A stretch of DNA of 59,011 nt, filler included, from Basidioascus undulatus (lineage: Eukaryota), in the NCBI GenBank assembly GCA_000826855.1. It is 5 parts of 5 records of this genome, joined end to end, with 100 filler letters (N's around TTAATTAATTAA, not from the genome) between each part and the next. Parts side by side here need not be neighbours in the genome. Positions count along the whole stretch, not along the records: positions 22,311 to 33,343 come from JTLS01001054.1; 4 more parts are not named here. One strand, given 5' to 3'. Within the stretch, counting starts at the first letter, position 1. The number at the start of each line of letters is the position of its first letter. Below are positions 11,060 through 58,500 of the stretch, one piece after another. The notes under the pieces were generated by a model. The model was not told where the DNA came from. It was given only the letters and a program-made list of their open reading frames with translations, and searched no databases. Both the position numbers and the translations under genes were made by a program.

Positions 11060-11159
11060 NNNNNNNNNNNNNNNNNNNNNNNNNNNNNNNNNNNNNNNNN
11101 NNNTTAATTAATTAANNNNNNNNNNNNNNNNNNNNNNNNNNNNNNNNNNNNNNNNNNNN
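11060..11159. other. Artificial contig spacer (N44-TTAATTAATTAA-N44)
   Basis: N runs flank a linker with stops in all six frames; exactly 100 nt. Confidence 0.98.
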
Positions 11160-22210: not shown

Positions 22211-22310
22211 NNNNNNNNNNNNNNNNNNNNNNNNNNNNNNNNNNNNNNNNNNNNTTAATTAATTAANNNNNNNNNNNNNNNNNNNNNNNNNNNNNNNNNN
22301 NNNNNNNNNN
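22211..22310. other. Artificial contig spacer
   Basis: N44-TTAATTAATTAA-N44. Confidence 0.98.
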
Positions 22311-22402
22311 CGGGGCCCACAACCAGAAGACCCTGACTTGGTTCACCGCCAAAGCCCTCTCCCTCCCATCGCCAACGCTAAGTGGCCTAAACCAAACCCC
22401 AG

Positions 22403-23267
22403 ACGCCTGATAACAAACATCCTCATATCATTCCTCACGACCCCGCGGGCCGATCCCAAGCGCTTCGAGATGCTGTCCCTCCTCGCGTCCGTCCTCTCGT
22501 GGGACGATGAGGAGCGCGAGCAGGCTGGCCTGCAGCGCGGGGGTGGGGCCGGCCCCAGCGCACCGGGAAGGGGCGTGAGGAGAGTCAGCAGCGCGAGCCC
22601 GGCGGCTGCGGGGGCGGGCGGGCAGGAGGAGGAGAGCGCTGCGAGCGAGGTGCGTTTTCGGGTTTCTCTTCTTTTCTCGTCCCATGTACCGGCTGTTGAT
22701 ATTCACTCCCACCCTCAGTCATTCGGCACCCTCTTCGTCGAGTTCCTCCTCAAAGAGACCCAATCCTCTGCCAATCTCAACCAGCCCCCCTCCACCTCCA
22801 CCGACTCGTCCTCCTCTTCCGCATCCTCCGAGACGCGCCTCCTCCCGCCCAACTGGCGCGCAAACCTCCCCTCCGCGCTCCTCCACATCGCCACCCGCTC
22901 TCGCCCTCCAACGACAACCGTGTCCCCTTCGCCCGCGAAGCTCGCGTTCCTCGCCTCCTGGGCATCAACCAACATGGACCCTTCCTCCGCGCTCCACGCG
23001 CTCCTCGCCTCCCGCATGCGCGCCATCCTCGCAAGCCTCATCGAGGCCGACCTCGAGCGCAGCAGGTTCGTCCAGATCCCTCGCTTCGCGGGGAAGAAGA
23101 AGGACGCCGGCGCGGATGGGAGCTTGTTTGTCGGCACCGGGCTCGAGTGCCTTGAGGGAGAGATTCGAACGGTCGTGGAGCGCTTGGGAAGGATCGCAGA
23201 GTTCAACCTCGCTGTCTTCCAGCACGTCTACGCCGAGATCGTCGCGCCGCCCACCGCCGCGGCGTAG
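22403..23267 (+). CDS. 3' end of a gene: GRAB domain (Rud3/GMAP-210-type golgin) continuing in frame into a Tcp11/Sok1-like C-terminus
   Basis: RLITNILISFLTTPRADPKRFEMLSLLASVLSWDDEEREQAGL...SFGTLFVEFLLKE (GRAB plus GA1 motif), then WASTNMDPSSALHALLASRMR...GLECLEGEIRTVVERLGRIAEFNLAVFQHVYAEI (Tcp11-like end). Confidence 0.7.
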
Positions 23268-24939
23268 GCGTTCCCCCTTTGTCTCTCGTCTCTCGCGCCT
23301 TTCACTCCATCTGTCGTCTTGTTTAGTCGTCCGTAGTTAGTTAGTCCCCAGTCCACTCGCACACATTTCACCACATCTATCTCATCACACGCTTCGCATC
23401 TGTTCGCACCCCGTTTTCGCGTTTGTCTCGCATCCGCGCGCTCATGGACCCCTCATTCGCATTGCTTTGCTCTTTAGTCTGTCCTGTTCTGTTTTGTTCG
23501 TACACGTACGTATTACCACGCGCCCTTGAGCGGCGCACCACCACGCACTACCATCTCGCGGATATGCCCACACGATAGCTGTTAGCTCTTGGTTCGTTAG
23601 CCTTGTACTCTGCTTTTTCACTCACTCTCTCGGGCTTTTAGTACTCTTCGCTTCTCACCTCTTCTTCAGCGCTATTGATCCCCTCTCATCGGAGGGTCGT
23701 TCTTCGTTCTCTCGAGCACGCACCAGCGACAGTCTTTTCCGAACTCCCTTCTTCCTTTTGCGCTCTTATGGTTCTGTTTAGCTGCTGCCACACCACTGTT
23801 ACTGTTACATCCACGCATATTTGGTTTGCTTTGCTCACGTTCATTCGTCGTTCGCTCTTCGATTCACACTCTTCGTCTTCGTCTTGTCGGCCGCTCACTT
23901 TGTCGGTGTCGCACCACTCTGTTTGTGCTTTTGGTCTCGCTTTCGACTTTTTGTACCTTGCTTTGTTTTTGGTGCGGCTTTACGATACGTATGAAACTTT
24001 TGCATGTCCTACAGCTTGAGTGCTTTGGGTCGATGGGGATGACTGCGTGTAGTTTCGAAAAGTGACAGGCCATGCCTGTTGGCCCTGCGGCACCCAAGTC
24101 GGTACTGAGTTTGCGCACCGGTTCTGTTTCCCGAATTACATGTTGAGATTCATGATTTCGGGCAGGCTCAAGACTATGCCCGCGCTGCAGGGCGGCCACC
24201 AGGCCCTGAGCTGTTGGCGATGGTCCTGGTTGTAGGATGAGTCTGAACCGCACGTTCCCTGAGAGACAGTGTCGGCTCCTTCTGCCTGGTTCACGTTAAT
24301 ATGAACAGAACACATAGAGCGTCCAGATAGGGCTTTTGAGAGGCACGATCTTATTGCAGTACTTTGACACCCAGCCGTGGGAGCAGAAGCGTGTGGGCTC
24401 GGATGAAGCCCGACTTCGTTTCTTTCTCGGCAACCATCGGCCCATATCGAGCTTTCTCGCATTTGTAACTCACTTCTAAGGCTGTACTCTGCTGTCGCTC
24501 GATGTCCGCCAGCGCGGGGAATCATTGTCCCGCGCCGAACGCTGCTGGCTCGAGGGCGTGTTCCGCGATTGGGCGAGCTCATCGCAGACTCACTTCGACG
24601 CCTCGACGGCGAACAACTGGGTTCTTCGTGTGGGTCCCCTTCGACCCTTTGACTCTCCGAGCCACTCAATGTTGCTGAGCTTTCCTTTCGAAATTTGCAA
24701 CCACTGCCACCTTTCCCGGAGTCCTCTTCCACGCCGTCCTTGCCTTCTTCGGCTTCTTCGAATCTTCGCCCCCTCTCGGCTCTTCCATATCGCTGTCCAA
24801 ACCACGGCAGGGCAGTAGTGGAGCCACAAATTTTCTAGAGAGCGTGGTATCGGTGGAAATCGGAACGATTCGTTGGAGGATCTACAGGAGTTACTCCCTG
24901 TGGCTTGGCTGTACGTACATGTGCACCATACAGTTTCAT

Positions 24940-26040
24940 AATATTGTTGTATTATGAGCCTAGAGGACGTTTGGAAAGGGACAACCTCCGCTACATCATC
25001 GAGGCTGCGCTCCTTCAGGGCGAACTTCTCAACCGCACCGTGGTATTGCCCAGCTTCGTGTATGCGCGGGCGTTGCGAGGTCGGGCAGTGAGTTGAGATA
25101 TCACTGCTACTCAAAGCCGCCCCAGGCAGACCCATGAGAGTTCTTGCCGACAGCAAGACGTGCGCCCTCTTCGCGAAGCAAGTGAATCAGCGGCATGCGC
25201 TTGGTACATTGCGTTCTTCTCCGACTCTCCGAGACCCTCTCACCTGTACTCCATAACCCAATTCAACGGACGGAGAGAGTGGGACGGCCTCCCCGAGGAG
25301 GAGCAGCAAGGGTGGATTCTGCTAATCGAAGAGCGTCGTCTGCTTGCCCGTCGTCTGCTTGCCTCACTTGGCGTTCTTTCCATCAGAGGGACTGACGTTG
25401 GAGCACTCATGCAGGTCATGCTCGATATCACCCATTTTCGGATGACCTACGGATCCGTGTTGACTACGCGCGAGTTCCTGGTCCTGCACGGGCGTGTGGG
25501 GCTAGGCGACAACCCTCTGGGGCAGTGGTTTCCAGGATATCATGACGGGTTGACCAGTGCATATTCACATCTCCAAGGACTGCAGCGGTCAATACAAGCT
25601 TAAATTCTCGTATACCGCGTCATCTCCAGCAGAGACTGCGATCGCAAGCCCCGCGTACGGGTCGACCGCCTCCCTCCGCCGTTCCCAGACAAAGCCGCAA
25701 CCAAGCTCCCTGCCGGCCTCTCGCGCGACGTAGTAAATGGGATCGTTTAACACAAGCTGAAGGAGATTAGCAAGGCGACCTTGCCTTTCCGCAAGGGACT
25801 TGCGCCTGCGGTTCAGGAGCAGGTCGGCGTAACATAGCGGAGATGGTAGAGCTTCCGATGGGACGCGTAGAGAAGGACTTGGCTGGAAAGGAAGCCGTGG
25901 ATATCCTGGCGGTGATGGGGCTACACGGTGTATGGACGAATGCTACGGTGTGAGTGCTTGTATCGCTGGAGAAGGCTTGCTCTGCGGAGTGCTGACGCGC
26001 ATCGCACTTCTACAGGCTGGGCTTGGACTACCTGTATGCC
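24940..26040 (+). pseudogene. O-fucosyltransferase-like glycosyltransferase pseudogene
   Basis: NLRYIIEAALLQGELLNRTVVLPSFVYARA matches the N-terminal NRTLVLP motif of O-FucT-like proteins. There is an apparent +1 shift before CE, downstream stops (e.g. 25601-25603), and no intact C-terminus. Confidence 0.6.
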
Positions 26041-26793
26041 AGATTTCCGGCTGCTCTGGACGTGACCGGATTTCGTTGACAATGGAATTTTTCCCAGCAA
26101 GACCCCTACCCGATCCGTCGTGAAGGTGACGGTTAATGGAAGGCTACGTGGGTTCTACGACGACTACGACGCTGCACCCGAAGAGATCCCATATCTTCAA
26201 GTGCGTCGCTGTATTCCTTCGGCATGTGCGTAGCGATTCTGCAGGATCCGGGCGTGCATCCTACTGATGTTCGCTGGCTGCTGTTAGGCAAATTCATCCG
26301 TTGCGGGTGGCACTGCCAACTCACGAACTAGAGCGGGGAGACCGTTACGTGCAGCACATATCGACAGAGAGCCATAGATACCTTTTCACCGCATGACTGC
26401 GTATGTTGCTCGCATGAAGATGCCGGAAGTGAGTTTGGCAACGTCCGAAGACATCGTCTTTCGTTTTCGGAATTCAGATTCTTCAAAGCGCACTGGAGCT
26501 TATAAAGCAGCTTCCCGCAGCAAGGCGCGTTGAGACCGTCGGCTGGCCGCTTTGCACTCATTTCGGCTTCGGTGCCACCCGTTACGCTTTTGAAGTTTAG
26601 TTGAGTTCAATGCACGGACCCCGCACGTACACCTAGTAGTGAACGCATGCAGGCGTAAAACGTGGCAGTTTCCGCCAGCCGTCGTCCATCACAATCAAAT
26701 TGCCGAGTTGATCCGCCTTCAAACGACATATATACACCATGCAACGGGAAAAATTAGATAGCATCAAATATCTCGCTTAAAGCACCCCACATG

Positions 26794-28553
26794 TCATGGC
26801 CCCGACGCTCCGTTCCCACCGGCGCCTTCCTCATCATCCTCGTCCACCCCCGAGCTCGAGTCCGTCACCCACCCGTCTCCGGAGTCCGGCCCGTCAGACT
26901 CAACCGCATCAGAGTCATCGTACTCGTCAGTGGTAGTGTCGATCAAATCCGTGTCTGTATTCCCGTAGAACTGCTCGGGGAATGCCTCCTCCCAGCCTGC
27001 AGGACAGACAAAGCAGATCGTGTCAGCGGCTTCAGAGCGACAGGACGGGCTCAATCAGGGAAGAGTCGCACGACAATTGTCCGCATTGTCGATATCGTCC
27101 ATGCTGAACTCGAAGTGGCCGATCCACTCTATGCGCAATCGATCCGCGAGGCTCAGCTCAGCGAGAATGTCGAGCGACTCGAAGAAGGCTGGTTCGCCGA
27201 GGTCGAACTGTGTCGTAGGGACCCCAACGTCAGTATGCGCGTTCAAAGAGTCCGGAAAGTCCAAGTAAGGAAAATGCCTACTTGATCGCCCGCCAGCCCG
27301 AGAGTTTTAAGGTCCGGCAGTTTCCCGTCCCGGATGAGCTTCAAAAGCTCCAACAGCGCGAGCTCGTCCATGTAGTCCTCGATCACGAGTTTCTCAAGTC
27401 TGCACTCGCCGAGAAGCGCGTCCATCGCGATTGCTTCGACGAGCGCGGTCGCCTCGTCGCACGGTGGGCAGGAGAGGACTCTGAGGCGCCTGCGCAGCTG
27501 GTCGAAGCGGTCGGAAGCGAGGACATCCGCGATCGACGGGCCTTTGTCCTTCAGGAAGTCGTCGTCCCCCTCAAACCGTAGATGCGTCAGATTTCTGAGG
27601 GGCAAGAGGTGGTTCATGAAGCGGCGGGGACTGGAAGAAGCAGTCAGCATGCATCAAGTTTGCAAAGGCTCGAGAGCGAAGTCCAGACGCACGAGATTGG
27701 TTCGCCGACACTGGCTTCAGGCTGAATATCGGACACGTTGATCACGGTCGTGAAAGACTTTTTGGAGCGGGCGTTGCCTTTGTTGAAGAACGACAGTAGG
27801 CTGCGGATCCGACCCAGGTTTAGCTCTTGGTACAAGGAAAAATATGGAACTTACCCTTTAAAGTGGCTAAAGCGAGGTGCATAATAGAGAATCTCAAGAA
27901 GATGTCCAGTGAGGTGATGGCGGAACCGCGATACCAAGCGCACGCACCGGAGTCGCGATGTCCTTCATGACGCTCGACGTCAAAGTCAACGCATGCAGCG
28001 CGCTCTGGTCCTTCCGCAGGTATCCCATAATGACCGTCCACAGCTCGACCGGCCCCGGCGCGCACTTAAGCGGGTTGATGCGCTGGAGTCGTATCTTGCT
28101 CGCCTGCTCCCGGGCCCACTCCGGCGAGATGTGCTGGACAACCGCGACGGCGTCGGAGACGGCGCCCATATACCTCATCGCCTCATCCGTCGTCTCCCGC
28201 TGCTTCTTCTCGAACCTCGCGCGAGCTTCCAAAAGCTCTGGAACGCGCTCCTGCAGCGCCGAGAGCTCTGCGGCGGCCTCCGGCTGGAGGTGGGTCAGCC
28301 CCGCCGAGAGCCGGATAAGCCGCTCGCCGAACGCTTCCATCTTGGACGACTCCGTGGCCATGGGCGCGAGCGCGGCCGAGATCTGGATGGTTGACTCTTG
28401 TACCTCGGATAGCAGCGAGAGCGTCTCCGAGGGCAGCGAGGGGAGTGCGTTGCGGAGACGAGCGAGCTGAGCTTGAAGCGTATCGACGCGCGAGCGAGCC
28501 GCGTTGAGATCCCGCGGTGGGCTCGCAATGAACGGCGATAGCGACGGGTCCAC
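26794..28553 (-). CDS. F-box-like protein with N-terminal coiled coil, LRR-like segment and acidic tail; start unresolved
   Basis: Helical N-terminus, F-box-like GPVELWTVIMGYLRKDQSALHALTLTSSVMKDIATP, LRR-like LRNLTHLRF and LPDLKTLGL, and a D/E-rich end. Downstream introns splice in frame. Confidence 0.6.
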
Positions 28554-29418
28554 ACCGTTCAGACGGTGGATTCAGACATGTTAATGAGGCCGCTCAGAAC
28601 GAAAGTGGGGTCAGCGTAATGCGAAGTTGAAGAGGGTGATGGTCGCGGTGCATGAAACCGCGCGATATCGATGGCGAAGTTAGCTGCGTCGACGCGTCGC
28701 CTTCTCCGCATGCACGTGCGGCAAGAACCGAAAGCCTTACTACTTGCAACAATGTTAGAACAGCGGACATGTTGCCTCTGTATGCTCTACTTGAGCTCCT
28801 ATGGCTCTGGTTGGTCACGAAAAAGCAACAGAAGCACGCTTCGAAACCAGTTGCCGCCGCTGGTGACCCCAACTCATGCGGCATGTTCTCTTCATTGCTC
28901 AAGTTCGTCATTAAGCTATGAATTTACAAAATGCTTTATCCAGTTAGAATCACCAGCACCTCAACCACTCCATCTCCTGCCCCACTGCCCCGCAGTCAAC
29001 AAAACACCCAGTCAACAAAACAGCGCAGTGCGGGAAGTCACCGAGAGACAGGCGACGTACTGGTCAGATTGTAAATCTTCAACAATCTATGCTTCCGTTT
29101 ACTCTAGTAAGGATGTTCTCAAACTCCTCAAGCCAGCGTGGGGCCTGAACTTTGAAGCCCTGATATGGCTTGGACGATGAGCCCATACTGTTAAGGCATG
29201 AGCCCTTCTGTGCCGTGCACAAATGTGGTCTTACTCAACATAAAATTTACAGCAACATAAGTTATCAAGTCAAATGAGAACGATCGCAGGGAAAATCCAG
29301 GCCGAATGAGTGGTCTTTCACATTGAGTCCGGCAGAGTACACAACAAGCAGTATACGTAAAAACCAAGATGCTGTGTGTTTCTCTGTTGTCTTCTATATC
29401 TATGAGAACGTCTAGAAG

Positions 29419-30569
29419 TTACATCAAAAGCTTTGAGACAAGTGAAACAGGCACCAGTCTCTCCGCCTCATCGTAAAAGCCGCCGTGCACCATGTCGCTA
29501 AACCACAGCGGCCCCACGATGCTGAACCAGGAGAAGACCCAGAGATAGCCGAGCCAGGCCGGCCAACGGGAAATGCCCAATACATCCTCAAAAAAGATCC
29601 CACAACGTTGGGAAATAAAGAATAGGATGGTGCCGATGAACCGCTTGCCGGACGATGTGGCATAGGAATTGGCCATGTGGAACTATCGGAGAATGTGAGC
29701 AGACCGAAGATTGGTGGTTTGAGGCAGCCCTTACAATCGCCGAGAGGAGGAAAGCCGCTGACATGCTGGTTCGAGGCTTGAGTCCTAAAGAGCTAAGGAT
29801 GTAGCGGGGAATCACCGTGAATGGCTGTCTAGAGCGCATCAGCTACCCCAGTCGATAAGAACCAGCACAGCCCACTCACCCGACGGAGGCACTGATGCCA
29901 GCTCTCTCCCCAGAAGCCACGAATTGTGCGCATTCCAGCGAGGCCACCCCACAACGACGGGCAATCGGCCGGGGAGGAGACGCCGAGTGCGACAAGAGCG
30001 ATGCAGCCGTACTCGTAGTGCAGGGAAATCGACCCCCAAAGCGCGATGCCGTGGACGAGCGAGAGAGGGCCAAGCAGAGTGTATTCGAGTCCGATGCGAT
30101 GGATGAAGATGTCGAGCACGTCGAGGAAGAGGTAGAAAGCAAGCGCGCGAATGGTAGCGCCGAAGAGGAAGACCGGACGAGACGATGTCGGTGAGGGAGG
30201 TGTGTTCTTGACGCGCCAGTTCCAGCCGACGCCTCGTTGAGTGAGCAAGAGCCCGAAGGCCCAGCGCAGCCGACCGAAAAAGCCAGAAGGAAGCTTGGCC
30301 TCGCCGTCGCGCCGAAAGTCGCGCTGCGGCTCGCTGCAGAGCAGGAGTTCGACGGCGCGAAGGGCGACGCCGAACGCGGCGCTCGCTGGGCGGAGTCGGT
30401 CTAATGCGTTCGCGGCGGGTAGGGCGGTGTAGAGGTAGATGTGAAGAAGGATGAGCAGTGTGAGGGGCAGCCAAATGTAGAGCCGGAGAAAGCGGGAAAC
30501 CGTTGTGAGGCCGAGGATAAGGGAGAGGTTGGCGAGGTGGATCGTGGCTGTCCAAGGAAGGGACGCCAT
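29419..30569 (-). CDS. Membrane-bound O-acyltransferase (MBOAT_2, wax synthase/Tri7-like)
   Basis: Multiple TM segments, QRGVGWNW, PSLWGG...TIRGFWGESWHQCLRR, spliced AFLLSAI|FH with the conserved His, and LGYLWVFSWF. Two introns. Confidence 0.88.
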
Positions 30570-31515
30570 GGCGATGGGAAGGTGATAGCTAAGCAGGAAG
30601 ACCACGGAAAGTGCACAACATAAGGAGGTTTATATCCCATGCATGAAGATGGGTGAAATATCGTTTGAGAACAAGGCACGTCGAGGCATGCCGCCAAATC
30701 GTATGATGAGGCACGCTCGCTTATCCCTAACCTATAGACTATCTTCCAATTCCCAGTAGTATTTAGGCTGTAATCAGGACCTGTTCGGCTTTTACCTCCG
30801 GCCGCCGTCCCGCCTTCAGGAAATGTTGGTCCACGGAGAGTCTTCGGGAGAAGTGAGCGAAACAACGACCTAGGCTCACGCAAGTTGCCGCAAAGATTTG
30901 ACCACTCATGAAAAAGGCATAACCCTCACCATTTCGCACTTCCAAAACCTCGGTTGGGTTGAAAGACGTTGAAAGACCTCCGGCCTCGAGGTATCTCTGA
31001 ATTCATATTCGTAGCTTTACGTGTAGGCGGACAAGCTGCTTGTGCAAGATGGCCATCAGGGCCGCATCCAAACAGCGGCGGCTAGCGGCCATCCATGAGC
31101 TTCAAACCCGGTTCACAGTAGTATTGTTTCCTCAATGAAGCATTTCTAATACTGAGGCAGCTTTACGGCTTTACCTTCGCATCTGAACAGATTGCCGGTC
31201 CCGCTTCCTGCTCATAAGAGTTCGACTCGCCCTCTGGTCCGCCCTTCACGGCCCACCTGCACCCCCCCTAACCGGGACAATCAACCTGATGGAGTTCCGC
31301 CCCAAATACTCCCTGTATGGATTGGAATCAGCAGCAAAGAACTTCAGCAAACGGGCGATTTCGAGGGCGTGGGTGCACAGACTCAATCGCGATGCTGTCG
31401 GCAAGGCTGAAGCGTGTCTGGAGGACGAGGTCAAAATAAACTGTGGCAGTCTGCAATATAATAGGCTGAACTTGTACTGCGACCGTAATGCACGCTTGTT
31501 ATTGGGTAAAGGTGC

Positions 31516-31520
31516 AAAAA
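31516..31520 (-). terminator. RNA polymerase III terminator (T5)
   Basis: TTTTT one nucleotide after position 37 of the tRNA 5' half. Confidence 0.8.
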
Positions 31521-31521
31521 G

Positions 31522-31594
31522 TCGTAGTCAGATACTCTACCATTGAGCCAGCCGGCCTTGACCGACGCAGGGATCGAACCTGCAACCCCCTGAT
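31522..31594 (-). tRNA. tRNA-Arg(ACG): Circularly permuted tRNA-Arg(ACG): 3' half 31594-31559, then 5' half 31557-31522
   Basis: The minus strand reads A TCAGG GGGTT GCAGG TTCGATC CCTGC GTCGGTC A - A - GGCCGGC TG GCTC AATGGTA GAGT A TCTGA CT ACG A. Reordered, it gives a 72-nt cloverleaf with all four stems paired (Watson-Crick or G-U). Confidence 0.88.
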
Positions 31595-31604
31595 CCCGAC
31601 TTAA

Positions 31605-31652
31605 CCACTAGGCTAACGAAGGGGTTGAAGACGGCTGACAAAATGTATTATA
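31605..31652 (-). promoter_or_regulatory. Putative Pol III promoter of the permuted tRNA: TATA-like box, CAA, upstream A-box
   Basis: TATAATA at 31652-31646, CAA at 31627-31625, and TAGCCTAGTGG at 31615-31605 (fits TRGCNNARYGG), upstream of the B-box GGTTCGATCC at 31580-31571. Confidence 0.7.
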
Positions 31653-32282
31653 GGTAGGCCAGCCAGCAAGTCCAAGGCAAGCAGCAGTTGCGGTTAAAAG
31701 CGTCGAAATCAAAGGCAGCTGCCTCGATATTCCTTGAACACTGCTTCAACGAGAAATGTCAGGAAGTCCGCGCATTTGTGAAAGAAATCAACTCGCGCTA
31801 GTACCCCTGTTCTGTGTCACAGCCTCGCTTGCACGCGCGCGACGCTCTGACCCCCGACGCTCGCTCTTCGCTCCTCGCCCTTCTCTGCCGGCGCTGTCCT
31901 CATCCTCACCTCACCCTCATCACCTCCTTCTCCCCGCCGCTTACCATCGCCCTACCCTCCAGCGAAGTCCCCTTGGACCCAGCGAGCTTTGCAGTTTGTA
32001 GCGCGGTATACTCATCGGAGGTCCGTCTGTGCCTGGGCAGCTGCCGCGTCCCTCGAAACGCCCGCTCCCTGGCTCAACTGCCTCGCGCTCTGTCCCTTCC
32101 AGCCTAACCTTCGCCCTCGTCCTCGTCTCGCGCCCACTCATCCTCCCTCTTCGCCCTCAACACCCAAACATCCCCCGCCCACACTCCATTCATCCCGGCA
32201 GGTGCGAGCTCTCGCTCTCCCTTTGTCCGGCTCCGAGCCCAAGATGGCTGGCTGATATGGGAGGACGGGCGGCCGGGCAGCC

Positions 32283-33343
32283 ATGTCCGACATCCAGGAG
32301 AAGATCGCCGCCGCCCGCCGCGAGGCCGAGGGGCTCAAGGAGAAGATCAGGGCTAAGCGCGAGCAGACGGCGGATACCACTCGTGAGTAGCCGTCCTTTT
32401 GAGTTGCTGGCTGCGGGAGGGCCCACCCCGGTCGGGAGTGGATGTTCGCCTGGTCAAGCTTGCAGAGCATCTGGATCTTGCTTCTTTGCATGGGGATGGG
32501 ATATCAAGGATCCCAAATTGCATCGAGCAAGGTCTTGATGTCGAGCTGGCGCACTGACATCCCGCTCCCCAACCTTTAGTTCGCCAAATGTCCGCCGACA
32601 TCGACCCTCTCCCCCGCATCGTGATGAAGCCGCGGCGGACGCTCAAGGGCCACCTCGCCAAGATCTACGCGATGCACTGGTCCGCGGACAAGCGGCACCT
32701 CGTCTCCGCCTCGCAGGACGGCAAGCTGATTGTCTGGGATGCGTACACGACGAACAAGGTGCACGCGATCCCGCTCCGCTCGTCGTGGGTCATGACGTGC
32801 GCGTACGCGCCGTCGGGCGGCTTCGTCGCCTGCGGCGGCCTCGACAACATCTGCTCCATCTACAACCTCCGCTCCAAGGAGGGCTCCGTCAAAGTCGCGC
32901 GCGAGCTCAGCGCGCACACCGGCTATCTCTCGTGCTGTCGCTTCATCAACGACCGCCAGATCGTCACGTCCTCGGGCGACATGACGTGCATGCTGTGGGA
33001 CATCGACGCAGGCGTGAGGGTCATGGAGTTTGCCGACCACACTGGGGACGTCATGAGGTGCGTGCGCTCTCTTTCTATACACGCGAGCCATCGCGAAGAC
33101 GCAGGGCTGATCTCCTTCCTTGCCCTTTCAGCTTGTCGCTGGGCCCGAACCAGAACATTTTTGTTTCCGGTGCCTGTGACGCGACTGCGAAGATCTGGGA
33201 TATCCGGTCAGGCAAGGCCGTCCAAACCTTCACCGGCCACGAATCCGACATCAACGCTGTCCAGTGCGTTCCCTCTTTCCCCTCCGCACCTCCACCGCCC
33301 CTCTCACCCATCTCCCCGCCCACTCCCTCCCCGGTTCTTCCCG
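32283..33343 (+). CDS. GPB1: Heterotrimeric G-protein beta subunit, 3' truncated by the spacer
   Basis: [22 protein letters not shown]...[77 protein letters not shown]. Confidence 0.97.
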
Positions 33344-33443
33344 NNNNNNNNNNNNNNNNNNNNNNNNNNNNNNNNNNNNNNNNNNNNTTAATTAATTAAN
33401 NNNNNNNNNNNNNNNNNNNNNNNNNNNNNNNNNNNNNNNNNNN
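33344..33443. other. Artificial contig spacer
   Basis: N44-TTAATTAATTAA-N44. Confidence 0.98.
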
Positions 33444-38747: not shown

Positions 38748-42955
<4,208 letters not shown>

Positions 42956-44130
42956 CGCAGCGGATCGAACCAGTTGGAGCGGAGTGCGCAGGCGATCGAC
43001 AGGGTATGAGTTCACAGACTCCCAAAGGCGTTCTTCAGTGCTTTTAGGATTGCGATAGCTGCTCGAAAACGAGCGTGAGTACGTTGTGGTGCGAAAGAAA
43101 GAGGCGCGTCGGTGGCAAGTCCTGATTCTCGCTCGAAGCATGCCGGCCGGATGCAATGTCAGTCAGCCCTTTCGGCGCCAGGATTCAAGGAGCCGATTGC
43201 AGCCCAGGTCGTCTCTTCTCGGGTCTGGGGTTCTTACATTATCAACGGATATTGCCATGTGAATCATTATAAAAAAAAATTCACGGTTGATCCGGCTAGG
43301 ATTGCGGCCGTTGGCGGCCTCCCTGCATGACATTATTTGACCTAGGCAGGAAAGCAACAGTGCTCCTGCCCGACAAGCACCCCGACGAACACATGAATGG
43401 TGAGAGGTTTTCCTCCAACTGCAGGATACATCAAATATCATTGGTAAAATCCCACCTACCATTAAGAAAAACGCATCAAACCAAGTGAAGACGAGCTACA
43501 GCCTATGAAATGCCGCACAGTGGCAGCCTACTGGCAAGTGCTCCACACATTCTCAGGCTTCCTCCTACTGAACGTCCCCTTCGCCTCATCCTGTGGGAAT
43601 GCTAAAATACCTACCCCCCCTACCCAGTTAGTAATTCAGAAGGTAATTTGCAGCTGGAAGGCTTATTGAAAAGTCAGAGAGCACTGGTCTCGCGTGCGTG
43701 CTGGCGGGAAAGGTCCAAATCGGGAAATGCCGCAACCCCTCCGCGCAATGCAACTACACAGAGCTGTAAGACCGTCTCTTCTTGCTCACATGTAGACGAA
43801 ATTCATGTGCGTACGCAACAACACGTGTCTTGCAAGTCAAAAAGAGCGTCCAGTTTCTTGCTGTTTCCACCTCCGGCGTTTTAGAGCCCTCGGCAGACTC
43901 AGCAGACACGAAACGGCAACTCGGATGTAGTGCCAGTGGGGCAGTTGAACTCCACTGACTGTGAGAGCGACACACTCCGCTGTATCCTGCATCTCGTGCA
44001 CAATAGTGGACGGCTGTACAAAGGCTTGGACCATAAAGGCGGAGTCGCGTTGCCGTCGTCCCCCCACGTATTCCCGCAACTCAGAAATCGACAGTCCTCT
44101 TCCTTCTCTCTTTTCTAGCACCGAATACCA

Positions 44131-44473: not shown

Positions 44474-44573
44474 NNNNNNNNNNNNNNNNNNNNNNNNNNN
44501 NNNNNNNNNNNNNNNNNTTAATTAATTAANNNNNNNNNNNNNNNNNNNNNNNNNNNNNNNNNNNNNNNNNNNN
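44474..44573. other. Artificial contig spacer
   Basis: N44-TTAATTAATTAA-N44. Confidence 0.98.
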
Positions 44574-55536: not shown

Positions 55537-58500
55537 CTAACGTCCACTGTCTGTAGAGCGCCTCCCCCCGCCCTTGCCGTCCTCCGTCGAGCCCGAGCGG
55601 NNNNNNNNNNNNNGCAAGCCTTTGATCGTGCTCGTCACCATTGCGACAACCGACGTCGGCGCGGCAAGGCTTAGCTTGTCGCTCTTGCTGCCCTCGGACG
55701 GCCGGCGCTGCTCGTCCTCTTCGGACAAGCTCGGCATGCTCCACTCGTCCGAGGTAGTATGCCGGCCCTCGGGCGAGCTCGAGCTGGCTGGCGAAAGAGT
55801 GGGGTTGTTGGGAGGGGGCGCGTTGGGCAAGCGGGTATCATCTGCGGAATGCGGTTCGTCAGGCGTTCGTAAAATGCCTGTGAATAACGCTGGGAACGTA
55901 CGTTTGATGAGGGTCTTGGCGTAATCGAGGTCGCGATAAATAGCAGAAATGGTGTTGGCCTGAGCATCAAGCTGGTAAGCTCTCCGCGGGAAAATAAGGA
56001 CACGCAGCCAGAACGTACGACACCGTCTTCCGAGCGGATCTGCTCGCCCACAAGTCGTGCTTTCTCGATGACCTTCTTGTCGGTCGTGGCGGTCTTGAGC
56101 GCCTCCGCAAGGTGTTCGACGCTATTAAAGGGTATCAGTGACTGATCGGCGCGATCAGACGCCCACAACACGCTTACGTGAGTTTGCGCACGCTCGAACC
56201 GACGCCGATGGCTTCGACGCGATCTGCGTTGAAGAACTGGTCGCCAAAGAATCTGCCGTCGACAGCCGAATTAGCCCACTAGCCATTCATGCGGAAGGCA
56301 AACGTCGGTCTCACGGTTTGATGATGGTCGGAATGCCCGCTGCATGTCGAGAGCATGTAAGCGCACCATCCGCAGTAACCGGTTCGTCAAGGCACGCACC
56401 CCGAAGGCTGGCGCCCGTCGTTCCTGCACCGCCATGGTGGCACGCAGCGTCGACTGCAAAGCAATGTCGAGGATCAGTAACGGCGGATCTCGAGTCGAGT
56501 CAACTGGTGACTCACTGCGCGGGAACAACCATCCGTGGTCGATAGACGAGATGTTGTGGATGTTCTCCGGCAGGAACTTGGCCTCCTCCTCGCTCATGCC
56601 GCCGCTCTTCTTACTCGCGAGGCGGTCGGACCAGCCCTTGCTCAAGATGGCGTACACATCGGCCTCCTGGATCGCCTCGACGATGCACGCGGTCATCGCA
56701 TCCGGGTCGCTGGTTGAGATAGAGCGCGCAACGTCAGCATCAAAGAATGGGTGGGAATAATCAGACGGATGCGCACCTGACGACGATCGAGCCAAAACCG
56801 ATGTAGACGACCTTCTTGTGCGCTTTTTGTGCCCTGTCGATGAACTCGACGAGGTCTTGCGGAGGCTGCCACTTCTTGTCGGCCGAGCTGTCCGGGTCGT
56901 CGAGGAACCAATAGCCGGTAACATGGATCCTGCGTCCCCGCAAGTCGTCAGTGCTGAGCAATGACGAGCGGTGAAAAGAGAAGACCGAGCACTCACCACT
57001 CGTACCAGTCCAGCGGCGGCGGGACGAGCGACGGGCTGAAGCAGTAGAGGAACGGGACCTTGTGCTGTTCCATCTTGTCCAGGTTCGTCGACTGCAGGCC
57101 GAGCGTTGACTTGCGCCAGCGGTTGACCTGGCCCGATATGGCGCGCCAGAAAACCTGAGGAAAAGGTTGCGTTCAGCAGTCCGCAAGGATCCCGAGGTAC
57201 CGTTCATCGTACCTGGTCAAACATGGTCTGGAGGAACGGCGGTCAAGCGTTAGCGTCAACCGTTCACCGGCTCGTTCAGCAGCTTCGATCGCCGTTCGAC
57301 ACACATAGCTCATGTACTGTGCCCGCTCCTTCGTCAGTTTCCCTGTCTACGCATCTCAACTGGGGAATCACGTACGTTGTACGACCCGCCCATCTTGTGT
57401 TCCCTGCAGCCCCGAAACCTCATTCAATTAGCCTCCTCTCTCACGTAGTCGCCCACATTCACTCACGGCACAGCAAACGCATGCGGGTACGCGCGCGTGC
57501 GCGTCCAGGGCATAGTGAAAGCGCGGTAGTACGGGATCTGGAGCGCCTCGGCGATGTGCAGGCCGCCCATCGCGCTCGGGCTCTCGATGAGGATGTCCGT
57601 GCCTTGGCATGCCTTCCACGAGCGGCAGAGGAGGTCGTCGAGCCAGGAGCGGAACTGTTTTTATCACTACAATGAGCCATACAGGCCCCGCAGCGGCGGA
57701 AACGGAGACGGAACGGACCTTCGTCAAGCCCTCTTTCATAAACGACTGTAGCCCACTACCAAGTCAGCTCCTGTTCATTAATATCGTAGAGTGGATACGC
57801 ACAAGAGTGAACATCCCGTGCTCGACACAAATGCGCATGAGTTCCGCTGGGTCTCCTCCCACGTCGCGGAACTCGATCCCGTGCTGCAATGACGCGCACC
57901 CATTCGCTCAGCCACTGCTGCAACGCTTTACAATCCAGCGAAGTTCACTCACGCCCTCGATCCAGTCCCTGTACTCCGCGTGCGTCGCGATCCGGACCTT
58001 GTGGCCCTCCGCCTTGAGGCCCTTGCACAGCGCGATGTACGGCTGGACGTCTCCGCGGCTTCCAATGGTAAGGCACGTAAAGTGCAGCGAGTCCTGCGGG
58101 CGGAACGTTACTGCCCATCCCATCCCCCACCTCATCAGCTTCCCCTTCCCTCACTCCTTCCCGACGCGCCGCATCACCCGAAGTCAACGCACCGAAGGAT
58201 GAGCTCGTCGAAGTAAACATGACGGGCGGGACTGCGTCCGCGTTCTGGGGCGGCGGGCGTGCGGCGACCTCCGGGTGGAGCGCCTCGAGCTCCTCGAGGA
58301 TCATCGCCTCGCGCTTCTCGTTGCTCGGGCGGGACTGGGCCGACGCCGCAGAGCTCTCGCGCCGGTATGCGTCCTCGAGCTGCCGGTTCAGCAGCTGCAT
58401 GCATGCGTCGCGCCGCGTCGAGGAGGTGAACTCCAGGAAGAGCTCTTCGTGGCCTGGACCCCCGACATGGTCAGATCGCCTGCTCAGATTCCTCTTCTGT

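Follow-up and report, generated by a model that had tools for sequence, protein, structure and literature searches.

The window analysed here is a 59,011-nt stretch of draft sequence from the fungus Basidioascus undulatus (assembly GCA_000826855.1), and its subject is a minus-strand locus at which a preliminary description had placed a circularly permuted gene for tRNA-Arg(ACG). The two halves of the tRNA stand there in swapped order. The 3' half (positions 38-73) comes first, a single A separates it from the 5' half (positions 1-37), and the 5' half runs directly into a C (31521) and five T residues (T5, 31520-31516). Each half is 36 nt long, position 17 being absent from the 5' half. Put back into the usual order, the halves form an acceptor stem with 7 pairs, two of them G-U. 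The D stem has 4 pairs, including one G-U, and the anticodon stem has 5, including one U-G, and closes the loop CU-ACG-AA. The variable loop is 5 nt long, and the T arm, which contains TTCGATC, has 5 pairs. The swapped halves, the single A between them, and the C-TTTTT behind them had all been claimed before, and the coordinates and every listed stem agree with the sequence. The permuted layout of tRNA-Arg(ACG) is thus confirmed in the DNA.

In its native order the locus escapes the standard scanners, as had been predicted. ARAGORN called no tRNA gene in the whole 59-kb window, and Rfam returned no match at gathering scores. When the halves were reordered by script, ARAGORN called a tRNA-Arg(acg) of 72 nt with a regular cloverleaf, and this cloverleaf has a folding energy of -23.9 kcal/mol vs a minimum free energy (MFE) of -25.9 kcal/mol. 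As a specificity control, short sliding windows of 90, 110, and 130 nt across the 59 kb were each doubled and scanned by ARAGORN. Doubling detects genes permuted at 37/38 because a doubled gene of this type resembles an intron-containing tRNA gene. The scan called 25 of 21,732 doubled windows, 24 at 31522-31594 (14 of them as Arg-acg) and one elsewhere, so the permuted layout is not due to chance. The placement of the break at 37/38 is borne out by the Arg(acg) call on the reordered 72-mer and by a doubled-window scan that points only here. The lone other call, near 28600, is a Ser-act with a 39-nt 'intron' seen in one doubled window and is most likely a false positive. No second copy of either tRNA half is present within the window. 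The preliminary description had further stated that no 5' half precedes the 3' half. This stands as far as acceptor pairing goes, since nothing upstream pairs with the acceptor strand, but an A-box-like remnant of a D arm lies there and had been overlooked. The coordinates of all features are collected in Table 1.

Table 1. Features of the permuted tRNA-Arg(ACG) locus, in minus-strand order (Pol III, RNA polymerase III)
Feature	Position	Strand	Remarks
TATA-like element TATAATA	31646..31652	-	Predicted start (near 31626) lies about 20-26 nt downstream; putative Pol III role
A-box-like D-arm remnant TAGCCTAGTGG	31605..31615	-	10 nt upstream of the 3' half; exact fit to the A-box consensus
7-nt leader AGTCGGG	31595..31601	-	Common to other genomic copies: three contigs match to 31601 and then differ
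tRNA 3' half, positions 38-73	31559..31594	-	Anticodon stem 3' strand, variable loop, T arm, acceptor 3' strand, discriminator A
B box GGTTCGATCCC	31570..31580	-	Inside the T arm of the 3' half; the window's only match (0.83 expected)
Intervening sequence of 1 nt (A), separating discriminator A73 from G1	31558	-	Read in the sequence; spanned by a 56-nt read-derived contig with 0 mismatches
tRNA 5' half, positions 1-37	31522..31557	-	Acceptor 5' strand, D arm, anticodon stem 5' strand, CU-ACG-A
Trailer C + T5, Pol III terminator-like	31516..31521	-	Directly after position 37

The unusual junctions of the locus are present in contigs built from sequencing reads. Three runs (X1, X2, and X3), none of them recorded as RNA and all taken as read-derived contigs at k=31, were compared with 31380-31740. 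X1 and X2 come from different years and studies, have different contig sets, and both cover the whole stretch, and either may be the source of the assembly; X3 is DNA only by our guess. The downstream flank with T5, C, and A37, and onward into the D loop, lies in a 10,108-nt contig of X1 and a 14,573-nt contig of X2, both ending at 31542 with 0 mismatches. On the opposite side, a 1,740-nt contig of X1 and a 14,071-nt contig of X2, both beginning at 31572, cover the T loop and position 38 together with the leader and the flank beyond it, again with 0 mismatches. The junction 73-A-1 is contained in a 56-nt contig (31533-31588) that also matches perfectly. All three unusual junctions (flank/leader-38, 73-A-1, and 37-C-T5-flank) are thus found inside 0-mismatch contigs in both X1 and X2, which strengthens the preliminary description. 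The contigs stop within the locus because the sequence is a repeat.

That repeat is the main addition to the earlier account, since the permuted unit is multi-copy, with many near-identical copies in different surroundings. The 56-nt junction contig extends from position 44 to position 26 through the swapped junction and so holds the whole tRNA body without the anticodon arm. Its depth is 175 in X1 vs 14.8-18.7 in the five long contigs listed, and 473 in X2 vs 31.6-48.2, which corresponds to about ten copies. For a 53-nt variant with one mismatch, the depth in X1 is 298, or about seventeen copies. These numbers were taken from single-contig depths; the summed depths of bins (up to ~4,670 in X1) were left aside because overlapping short contigs are counted repeatedly in them. 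In each of X1 and X2, 13 contigs have the 5' half and C-T5 in common, part from the window at 31513-31516, and agree little with one another beyond that point, so the copies have different downstream flanks. On the other side, three contigs match as far as the end of the leader at 31601 and one as far as 31589. A paralogue of 31516-31595 with 6 differences lies in a 4,220-nt contig of X1 (18,542 nt in X2). Among the 56 contigs compared in X1, 37 are at least 99% alike, 16 are at 95-99%, and 3 are at 90-95%. Taken together, the copies look like a dispersed gene family whose conserved part is the transcribed unit, namely the 7-nt leader, the 3' half, the A, the 5' half, the C, and the T run. A selected tRNA gene family shows just this pattern, in which near-identity is limited to the unit and the flanks are unlike.

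Some members of the family deviate from this unit. A 3,014-nt contig holds the end of the acceptor 3' strand, the A, and the whole 5' half (31522-31565, 2 mismatches), and its match ends exactly after A37, so the trailer of that copy differs from C-T5. A single-copy contig, present in both X1 and X2, joins the end of the T run (31516) directly to 31394-31417 (24 nt) and skips 98 nt; at least one other copy thus has part of the downstream flank, with an insertion or deletion difference of 98 nt. In X3, the first 30 nt of a 93-nt contig (31537-31595) are the same as its last 30 nt, which indicates a repeat or circle of 63 nt. This 63-nt sequence consists of the G at -1, positions 38-73, the A, positions 1-21, and 4 other letters, and has no anticodon arm. 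The contig may represent a tandem array of truncated units.

The permuted unit is bracketed by promoter- and terminator-like elements, which are sequence matches only. Swapping the halves places the true A box, in the 5' half, behind the B box. Upstream of the 3' half, the A-box-like remnant precedes the B box, so the normal A-then-B order is restored, with 24 nt between the two. A scan for the A-box consensus on both strands of the 59 kb gave 2 matches vs 0.87 expected, one of them being this remnant, and the chance of a match within 40 nt upstream on the right strand is ~3e-4 (by arithmetic from 0.87 per 118 kb). The Rfam tRNA model aligns 31615-31567 to its positions 8-63 with 13.4 bits (E 9.6), which taken alone is weak; in this alignment a D arm stands immediately before the 3' half. 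The other A-box match of the scan, at 42292, was rejected because it lies in GC-rich, coding-like DNA and is not tRNA-like, and a B-box-like match at 42971 is not tRNA-like either. A predicted start near 31626 is at the usual distances from both the TATA-like element and the A-box remnant, and no T4 run lies between this start and T5. The TATAAT hexamer was also flagged by a consensus scan for sigma-70 promoters and hairpins, a scan that is not designed for Pol III signals.

The upstream remnant is strongly diverged from the half that it resembles. Aligned with the true 5' half, it has 11 identical columns of 27, all of them generic D-arm bases, and the acceptor-like 7 nt before it cannot pair with the acceptor 3' strand. 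The possibility that the upstream region is a decayed copy of the full unit was rejected: when either flank was aligned locally to the 86-nt unit, 380 and 451 of 500 shuffled sequences equalled or exceeded the real score, and the D-arm motif is all that stands out. There is a hint, from a noisy loose-end consensus with agreement of ~0.6, that three other copies carry a D-loop-like stretch before the common leader.

The predicted fold of the 86-nt shared unit keeps the tRNA body intact and closes the open anticodon loop. In the MFE structure, the leader AGUCG forms a 5-bp helix with C35-G36-A37 and the trailer CU, and a 3x3 internal loop separates this helix from the anticodon stem. The leader-trailer helix contributes -6.9 kcal/mol relative to the tRNA body alone. 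In another register, G-3 pairs with C32 and G-G-A38 forms a 3-nt bulge at the 3' cut site. The pair G-3:C32 would correspond to the anticodon-intron pair needed by eukaryotic endonucleases.

The window is made up of draft contigs of falling length (11,059, 11,051, 11,033, 11,030, and 11,027 nt, plus a partial one). They are separated by artificial spacers of the form N44-TTAATTAATTAA-N44 at 11060-11159, 22211-22310, 33344-33443, and 44474-44573, which carry stops in all frames, and an N13 run lies at 55601-55613. Because the spacers are artificial, adjoining pieces are not genomic neighbours. The permuted locus lies within the piece 22311-33343 (11,033 nt), 1.75 kb from its right end. The preliminary description had put it about 1.7 kb from the nearest gap; that 'gap' is an artificial spacer. 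About 1 kb away, on the opposite strand, lies an exon of a heterotrimeric G-protein beta subunit gene (32588-33055, plus strand), and the tRNA unit is situated upstream of this exon. The exon is 85-93% identical to fungal G-beta proteins, which is in keeping with the fungal host given in the preliminary description; the top named matches are from basidiomycete yeasts and smuts, and chytrid and Mucoromycota proteins are nearly as close. By this protein a basidiomycete host is likely, although G-beta is too conserved for the class to be settled. On the minus strand at 29829-30629 there is an open frame of 266 aa with one homologue in a near-length search (43% identity) and a precomputed Pfam assignment to PF13813. 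It looks like a member of a poorly populated membrane acyltransferase-like family.

We favor the reading that the locus belongs to a multi-copy family of type II (junction 37/38) circularly permuted tRNA-Arg(ACG) genes in a fungal nuclear genome, and that the family yields a working tRNA, to which we assign a probability of roughly 0.55. According to this model, Pol III would start near 31626, directed by the TATA-like element, the upstream A-box remnant, and the B box of the 3' half, and would stop in the T5 run, producing a transcript of ~105-110 nt that comprises the leader, the 3' half, the A, the 5' half, and the C. The two halves would fold as a normal tRNA body with an open anticodon loop, and pairing of the leader with the anticodon region and the trailer would create an intron-like structure at 37/38. 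The tRNA splicing endonuclease could then cut after A37 and before A38, and tRNA ligase would join 37 to 38 to form a 73-nt circle. RNase P, together with tRNase Z or an exonuclease, would linearise this circle at the acceptor end, taking out the single A. Finally, CCA would be added and A34 would be deaminated to inosine (I34).

Several points weigh against this model or limit its support. X1 and X2 may be the assembly's own source, so that their support is technical rather than independent. None of the k=31 contigs listed spans the whole locus, and as a result the flank-to-flank join and the number of units between the flanks rest on the original assembly. It speaks for the model that an ordinary join of 37 to 38, which would appear as a step back from 31522 to 31594, is not among the joints reported for X1 and X2 (8 of the 56 contigs being listed per run); a joint with a 24-nt side was reported, so sides of 36 nt should show, but this is not proof of absence. 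The A-B gap of the restored promoter is 24 nt vs 32 nt in a normal tRNA by our own count. In the splice-site fold, the strict-register structure resembling a bulge-helix-bulge (BHB) motif (C32:G-3, one U-C mismatch, and two 3-nt bulges) comes to +6.9 kcal/mol when set against the body, and the favoured fold buries the 5' cut site in the helix. Overall, the 86-nt unit folds with an unremarkable energy (z -1.07, or -0.13 with a longer leader), and we therefore call the predicted leader/trailer motif around the cut sites only BHB-like. The single-nucleotide intervening sequence, which would leave a 2-nt acceptor loop, is the weakest step of the proposed pathway. The only 1-nt case in the review of Soma (2014, PMC3978253) is archaeal, and the removal of such a sequence is called an open question there. 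Relatives were sought in two metagenome scans, which gave 0 matches for the exact T arm and D arm with a gap of 15-40 nt and 0 matches for a relaxed pattern of B box, GGTAGAG, CTACGA, and TTTT. Lastly, the high copy number, the 63-nt cyclic contig of X3, and the variants with another trailer also fit a spreading repeat family.

This last point leads to the main and serious rival, which we consider less likely: that the copies form a repeat derived from a tRNA and have no function. In this scenario, a gene for tRNA-Arg(ACG) was duplicated in tandem or in part, the duplicate shed its outer parts, and what was left multiplied through DNA duplication, unequal crossing-over, or retroposition of a Pol III transcript. 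The copies would look perfect only because the spread was recent, and the Arg(ACG) tRNA of the cell would come from ordinary genes elsewhere. Besides the copy number and the other trailers after A37, such a repeat would explain why copies lose the match at 31589, why the X3 contig implies a 63-nt repeat without an anticodon arm, and why remnants of a tRNA 5' part stand upstream of this copy and, by the noisy consensus, of three others. The unremarkable stability of the fold and its departure from a strict BHB point the same way. However, the copies have only a core the size of a transcribed unit in common and diverge right after the T run (13 contigs). Copies of a tRNA-derived short interspersed element (SINE) would have body and tail in common, and the family is not SINE-like because the 13 contigs in each of X1 and X2 diverge 0-3 nt past T5; our search also found no literature on tRNA-derived SINEs in basidiomycetes, subscription journals being outside its range. 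A neutral repeat would have no reason to keep the break at 37/38, the terminator one base later, and the acceptor complementarity, nor to retain every invariant tRNA base and a leader that is complementary to the region of the anticodon. In addition, the upstream remnant is strongly diverged, with no significant local similarity to the unit, whereas the core is identical to about ten other copies. A diverged remnant next to an identical core argues for constraint or conversion acting on the core, and not for a very recent burst. The ordinary genes would also have to contain the 37-38 join that does not appear among the reported joints of the contigs.

A non-decoding tRNA mimic is far less probable. 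Under this explanation the locus encodes a small Pol III RNA whose body resembles a tRNA and whose anticodon end is open, comparable to the YrlA Y RNAs; it would act in its transcribed form and never be circularised. In E-value mode, the best Rfam match is to the YrlA Y RNA-like model (RF02553), in which the tRNA-like module is permuted too (31516-31602, 32.2 bits, E 3.5e-5), and the predicted fold closes the ends of the transcript with a helix. The match is explained by the order of T arm, acceptor-like stem, and D arm alone, which the two have in common, and its score lies far below the YrlA gathering score of 69, so that nothing in the window is assigned to RF02553 at gathering thresholds. 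YrlA lacks a decodable anticodon loop. Here, in contrast, joining the ends restores exactly a full anticodon stem together with its 7-nt loop, including U33 and ACG, neither of which a mimic would need. Moreover, YrlA is bacterial or phage-borne and the host here is a fungus.

Least probable of all is an assembly artefact, in which a contig was mis-joined across a repeated tRNA sequence and the genome holds no permuted unit: the window is a concatenation of draft contigs of ~11 kb, the locus sits on a repeat at which the k=31 contigs break, and the runs that contain it may have been used for the assembly, but its three unusual junctions lie in perfectly matching contigs from two runs of different years and studies, a mis-join of two copies would not break up the permuted unit, since each flank is attached directly to one of its ends, and an ordinary gene needs a 37-38 junction of which the reported joints show none.

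If the family does yield a working tRNA, permuted tRNA genes would extend to the opisthokonts, and splicing and ligation machinery of the yeast type would prove able to process permuted precursors. A genetically tractable kingdom would become available for work on circular tRNA intermediates. In addition, the tRNA sets compiled for fungi by standard scanners could miss a whole isoacceptor family, as ARAGORN and Rfam both do here. tRNA-Arg(ACG) is the main reader of the codons CGU, CGC, and CGA after inosine editing. A bolder version, which we put forward tentatively and would not expect to hold as readily as the model above, is that every tRNA-Arg(ACG) of B. undulatus comes from at least 14 permuted loci and none from an ordinary gene. 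The four-subunit splicing endonuclease of opisthokonts and the fungal tRNA ligase would then routinely make circular tRNA intermediates, and RNase P with a 3' nuclease would open a circle with one extra nucleotide. The promoter problem posed by permutation would have been solved in a new way, by a remnant A box placed before the B box, and not by loss of TFIIIC as proposed for red algae.

By 2014, 34 permuted tRNA genes were known from six unicellular algae and one archaeon, and most eukaryotes have none according to the sections of that review used here (Soma 2014, PMC3978253). A 2026 review, in the part consulted, limits the eukaryotic exceptions to certain unicellular algae; later additions are a prasinovirus and Auxenochlorella (preprint, PMC12633428). 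The known permuted genes lie between a TATA-like element on the upstream side and a T-stretch on the downstream side, and their intervening sequences range over 1-74 bp; among green algae, type II (37/38) occurs most often (PMC3978253). Nuclear introns and green-algal type II junctions take relaxed helix-bulge-helix (hBH) forms at 37/38, and the pathway through endonuclease, ligase, and a circle was shown experimentally for algal permuted genes (PMC3978253). Our literature search, which did not extend to subscription journals, found no permuted tRNA gene in any fungus among the papers listed, so the claim that none had been reported there holds within that range. The B. undulatus family would accordingly represent a known kind, the type II permuted tRNA gene, in a new kingdom, the fungi.

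The closest known systems are the type II genes of Ostreococcus, Micromonas, Bathycoccus, Auxenochlorella, and the Bigelowiella nucleomorph (Maruyama et al. 2010 via PMC3978253; Michely 2013, PMC3673656; PMC12633428). Like the green-algal genes, the fungal unit carries both halves on one strand with the 3' half first, and its precursor ends meet at 37/38. In both, a short intervening sequence lies at the acceptor end, the 5' half is followed by a T-stretch, and an AT-rich or TATA-like sequence stands upstream. Judging by the predicted folds, the fungal junction may likewise be relaxed (hBH-type) and not a strict BHB. The differences are also clear. The intervening sequence is 1 nt vs 11-64 bp among the green-algal entries listed, Arg(ACG) is not among the permuted isoacceptors listed for those algae (PMC3978253), and the fungal unit is apparently multi-copy, whereas each algal one is a single gene within a small set of tRNAs. 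The host is a fungus, and an upstream A-box-like remnant restores the A-then-B order. Expression has been shown for the green-algal genes, whereas that of the fungal unit is predicted.

In the length of its intervening sequence, the fungal unit resembles tRNA-Tyr(GTA) of Thermofilum pendens, whose 1-nt sequence is the shortest in the review table (Chan, Cozen and Lowe 2011, via PMC3978253). That gene is archaeal, has its junction at 59/60 in the T loop, encodes CCA, and carries an extra intron (PMC3978253). Cyanidioschyzon merolae (2007, via PMC3978253) has the same gene order and the same proposed pathway of endonuclease, ligase, circle, RNase P and tRNase Z, and CCA addition, with a TATA-like sequence upstream (within 50 bp in that alga) and a T-stretch downstream. 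Its junctions are at 20/21, 37/38, 50/51, and 59/60, and its intervening sequences are of 7-74 bp (PMC3978253). Box-binding subunits of TFIIIC were not found in C. merolae, and transcription of its permuted genes is thought to be independent of TFIIIC (PMC3978253). In B. undulatus, by contrast, a TFIIIC-compatible A-B arrangement seems to have been kept.

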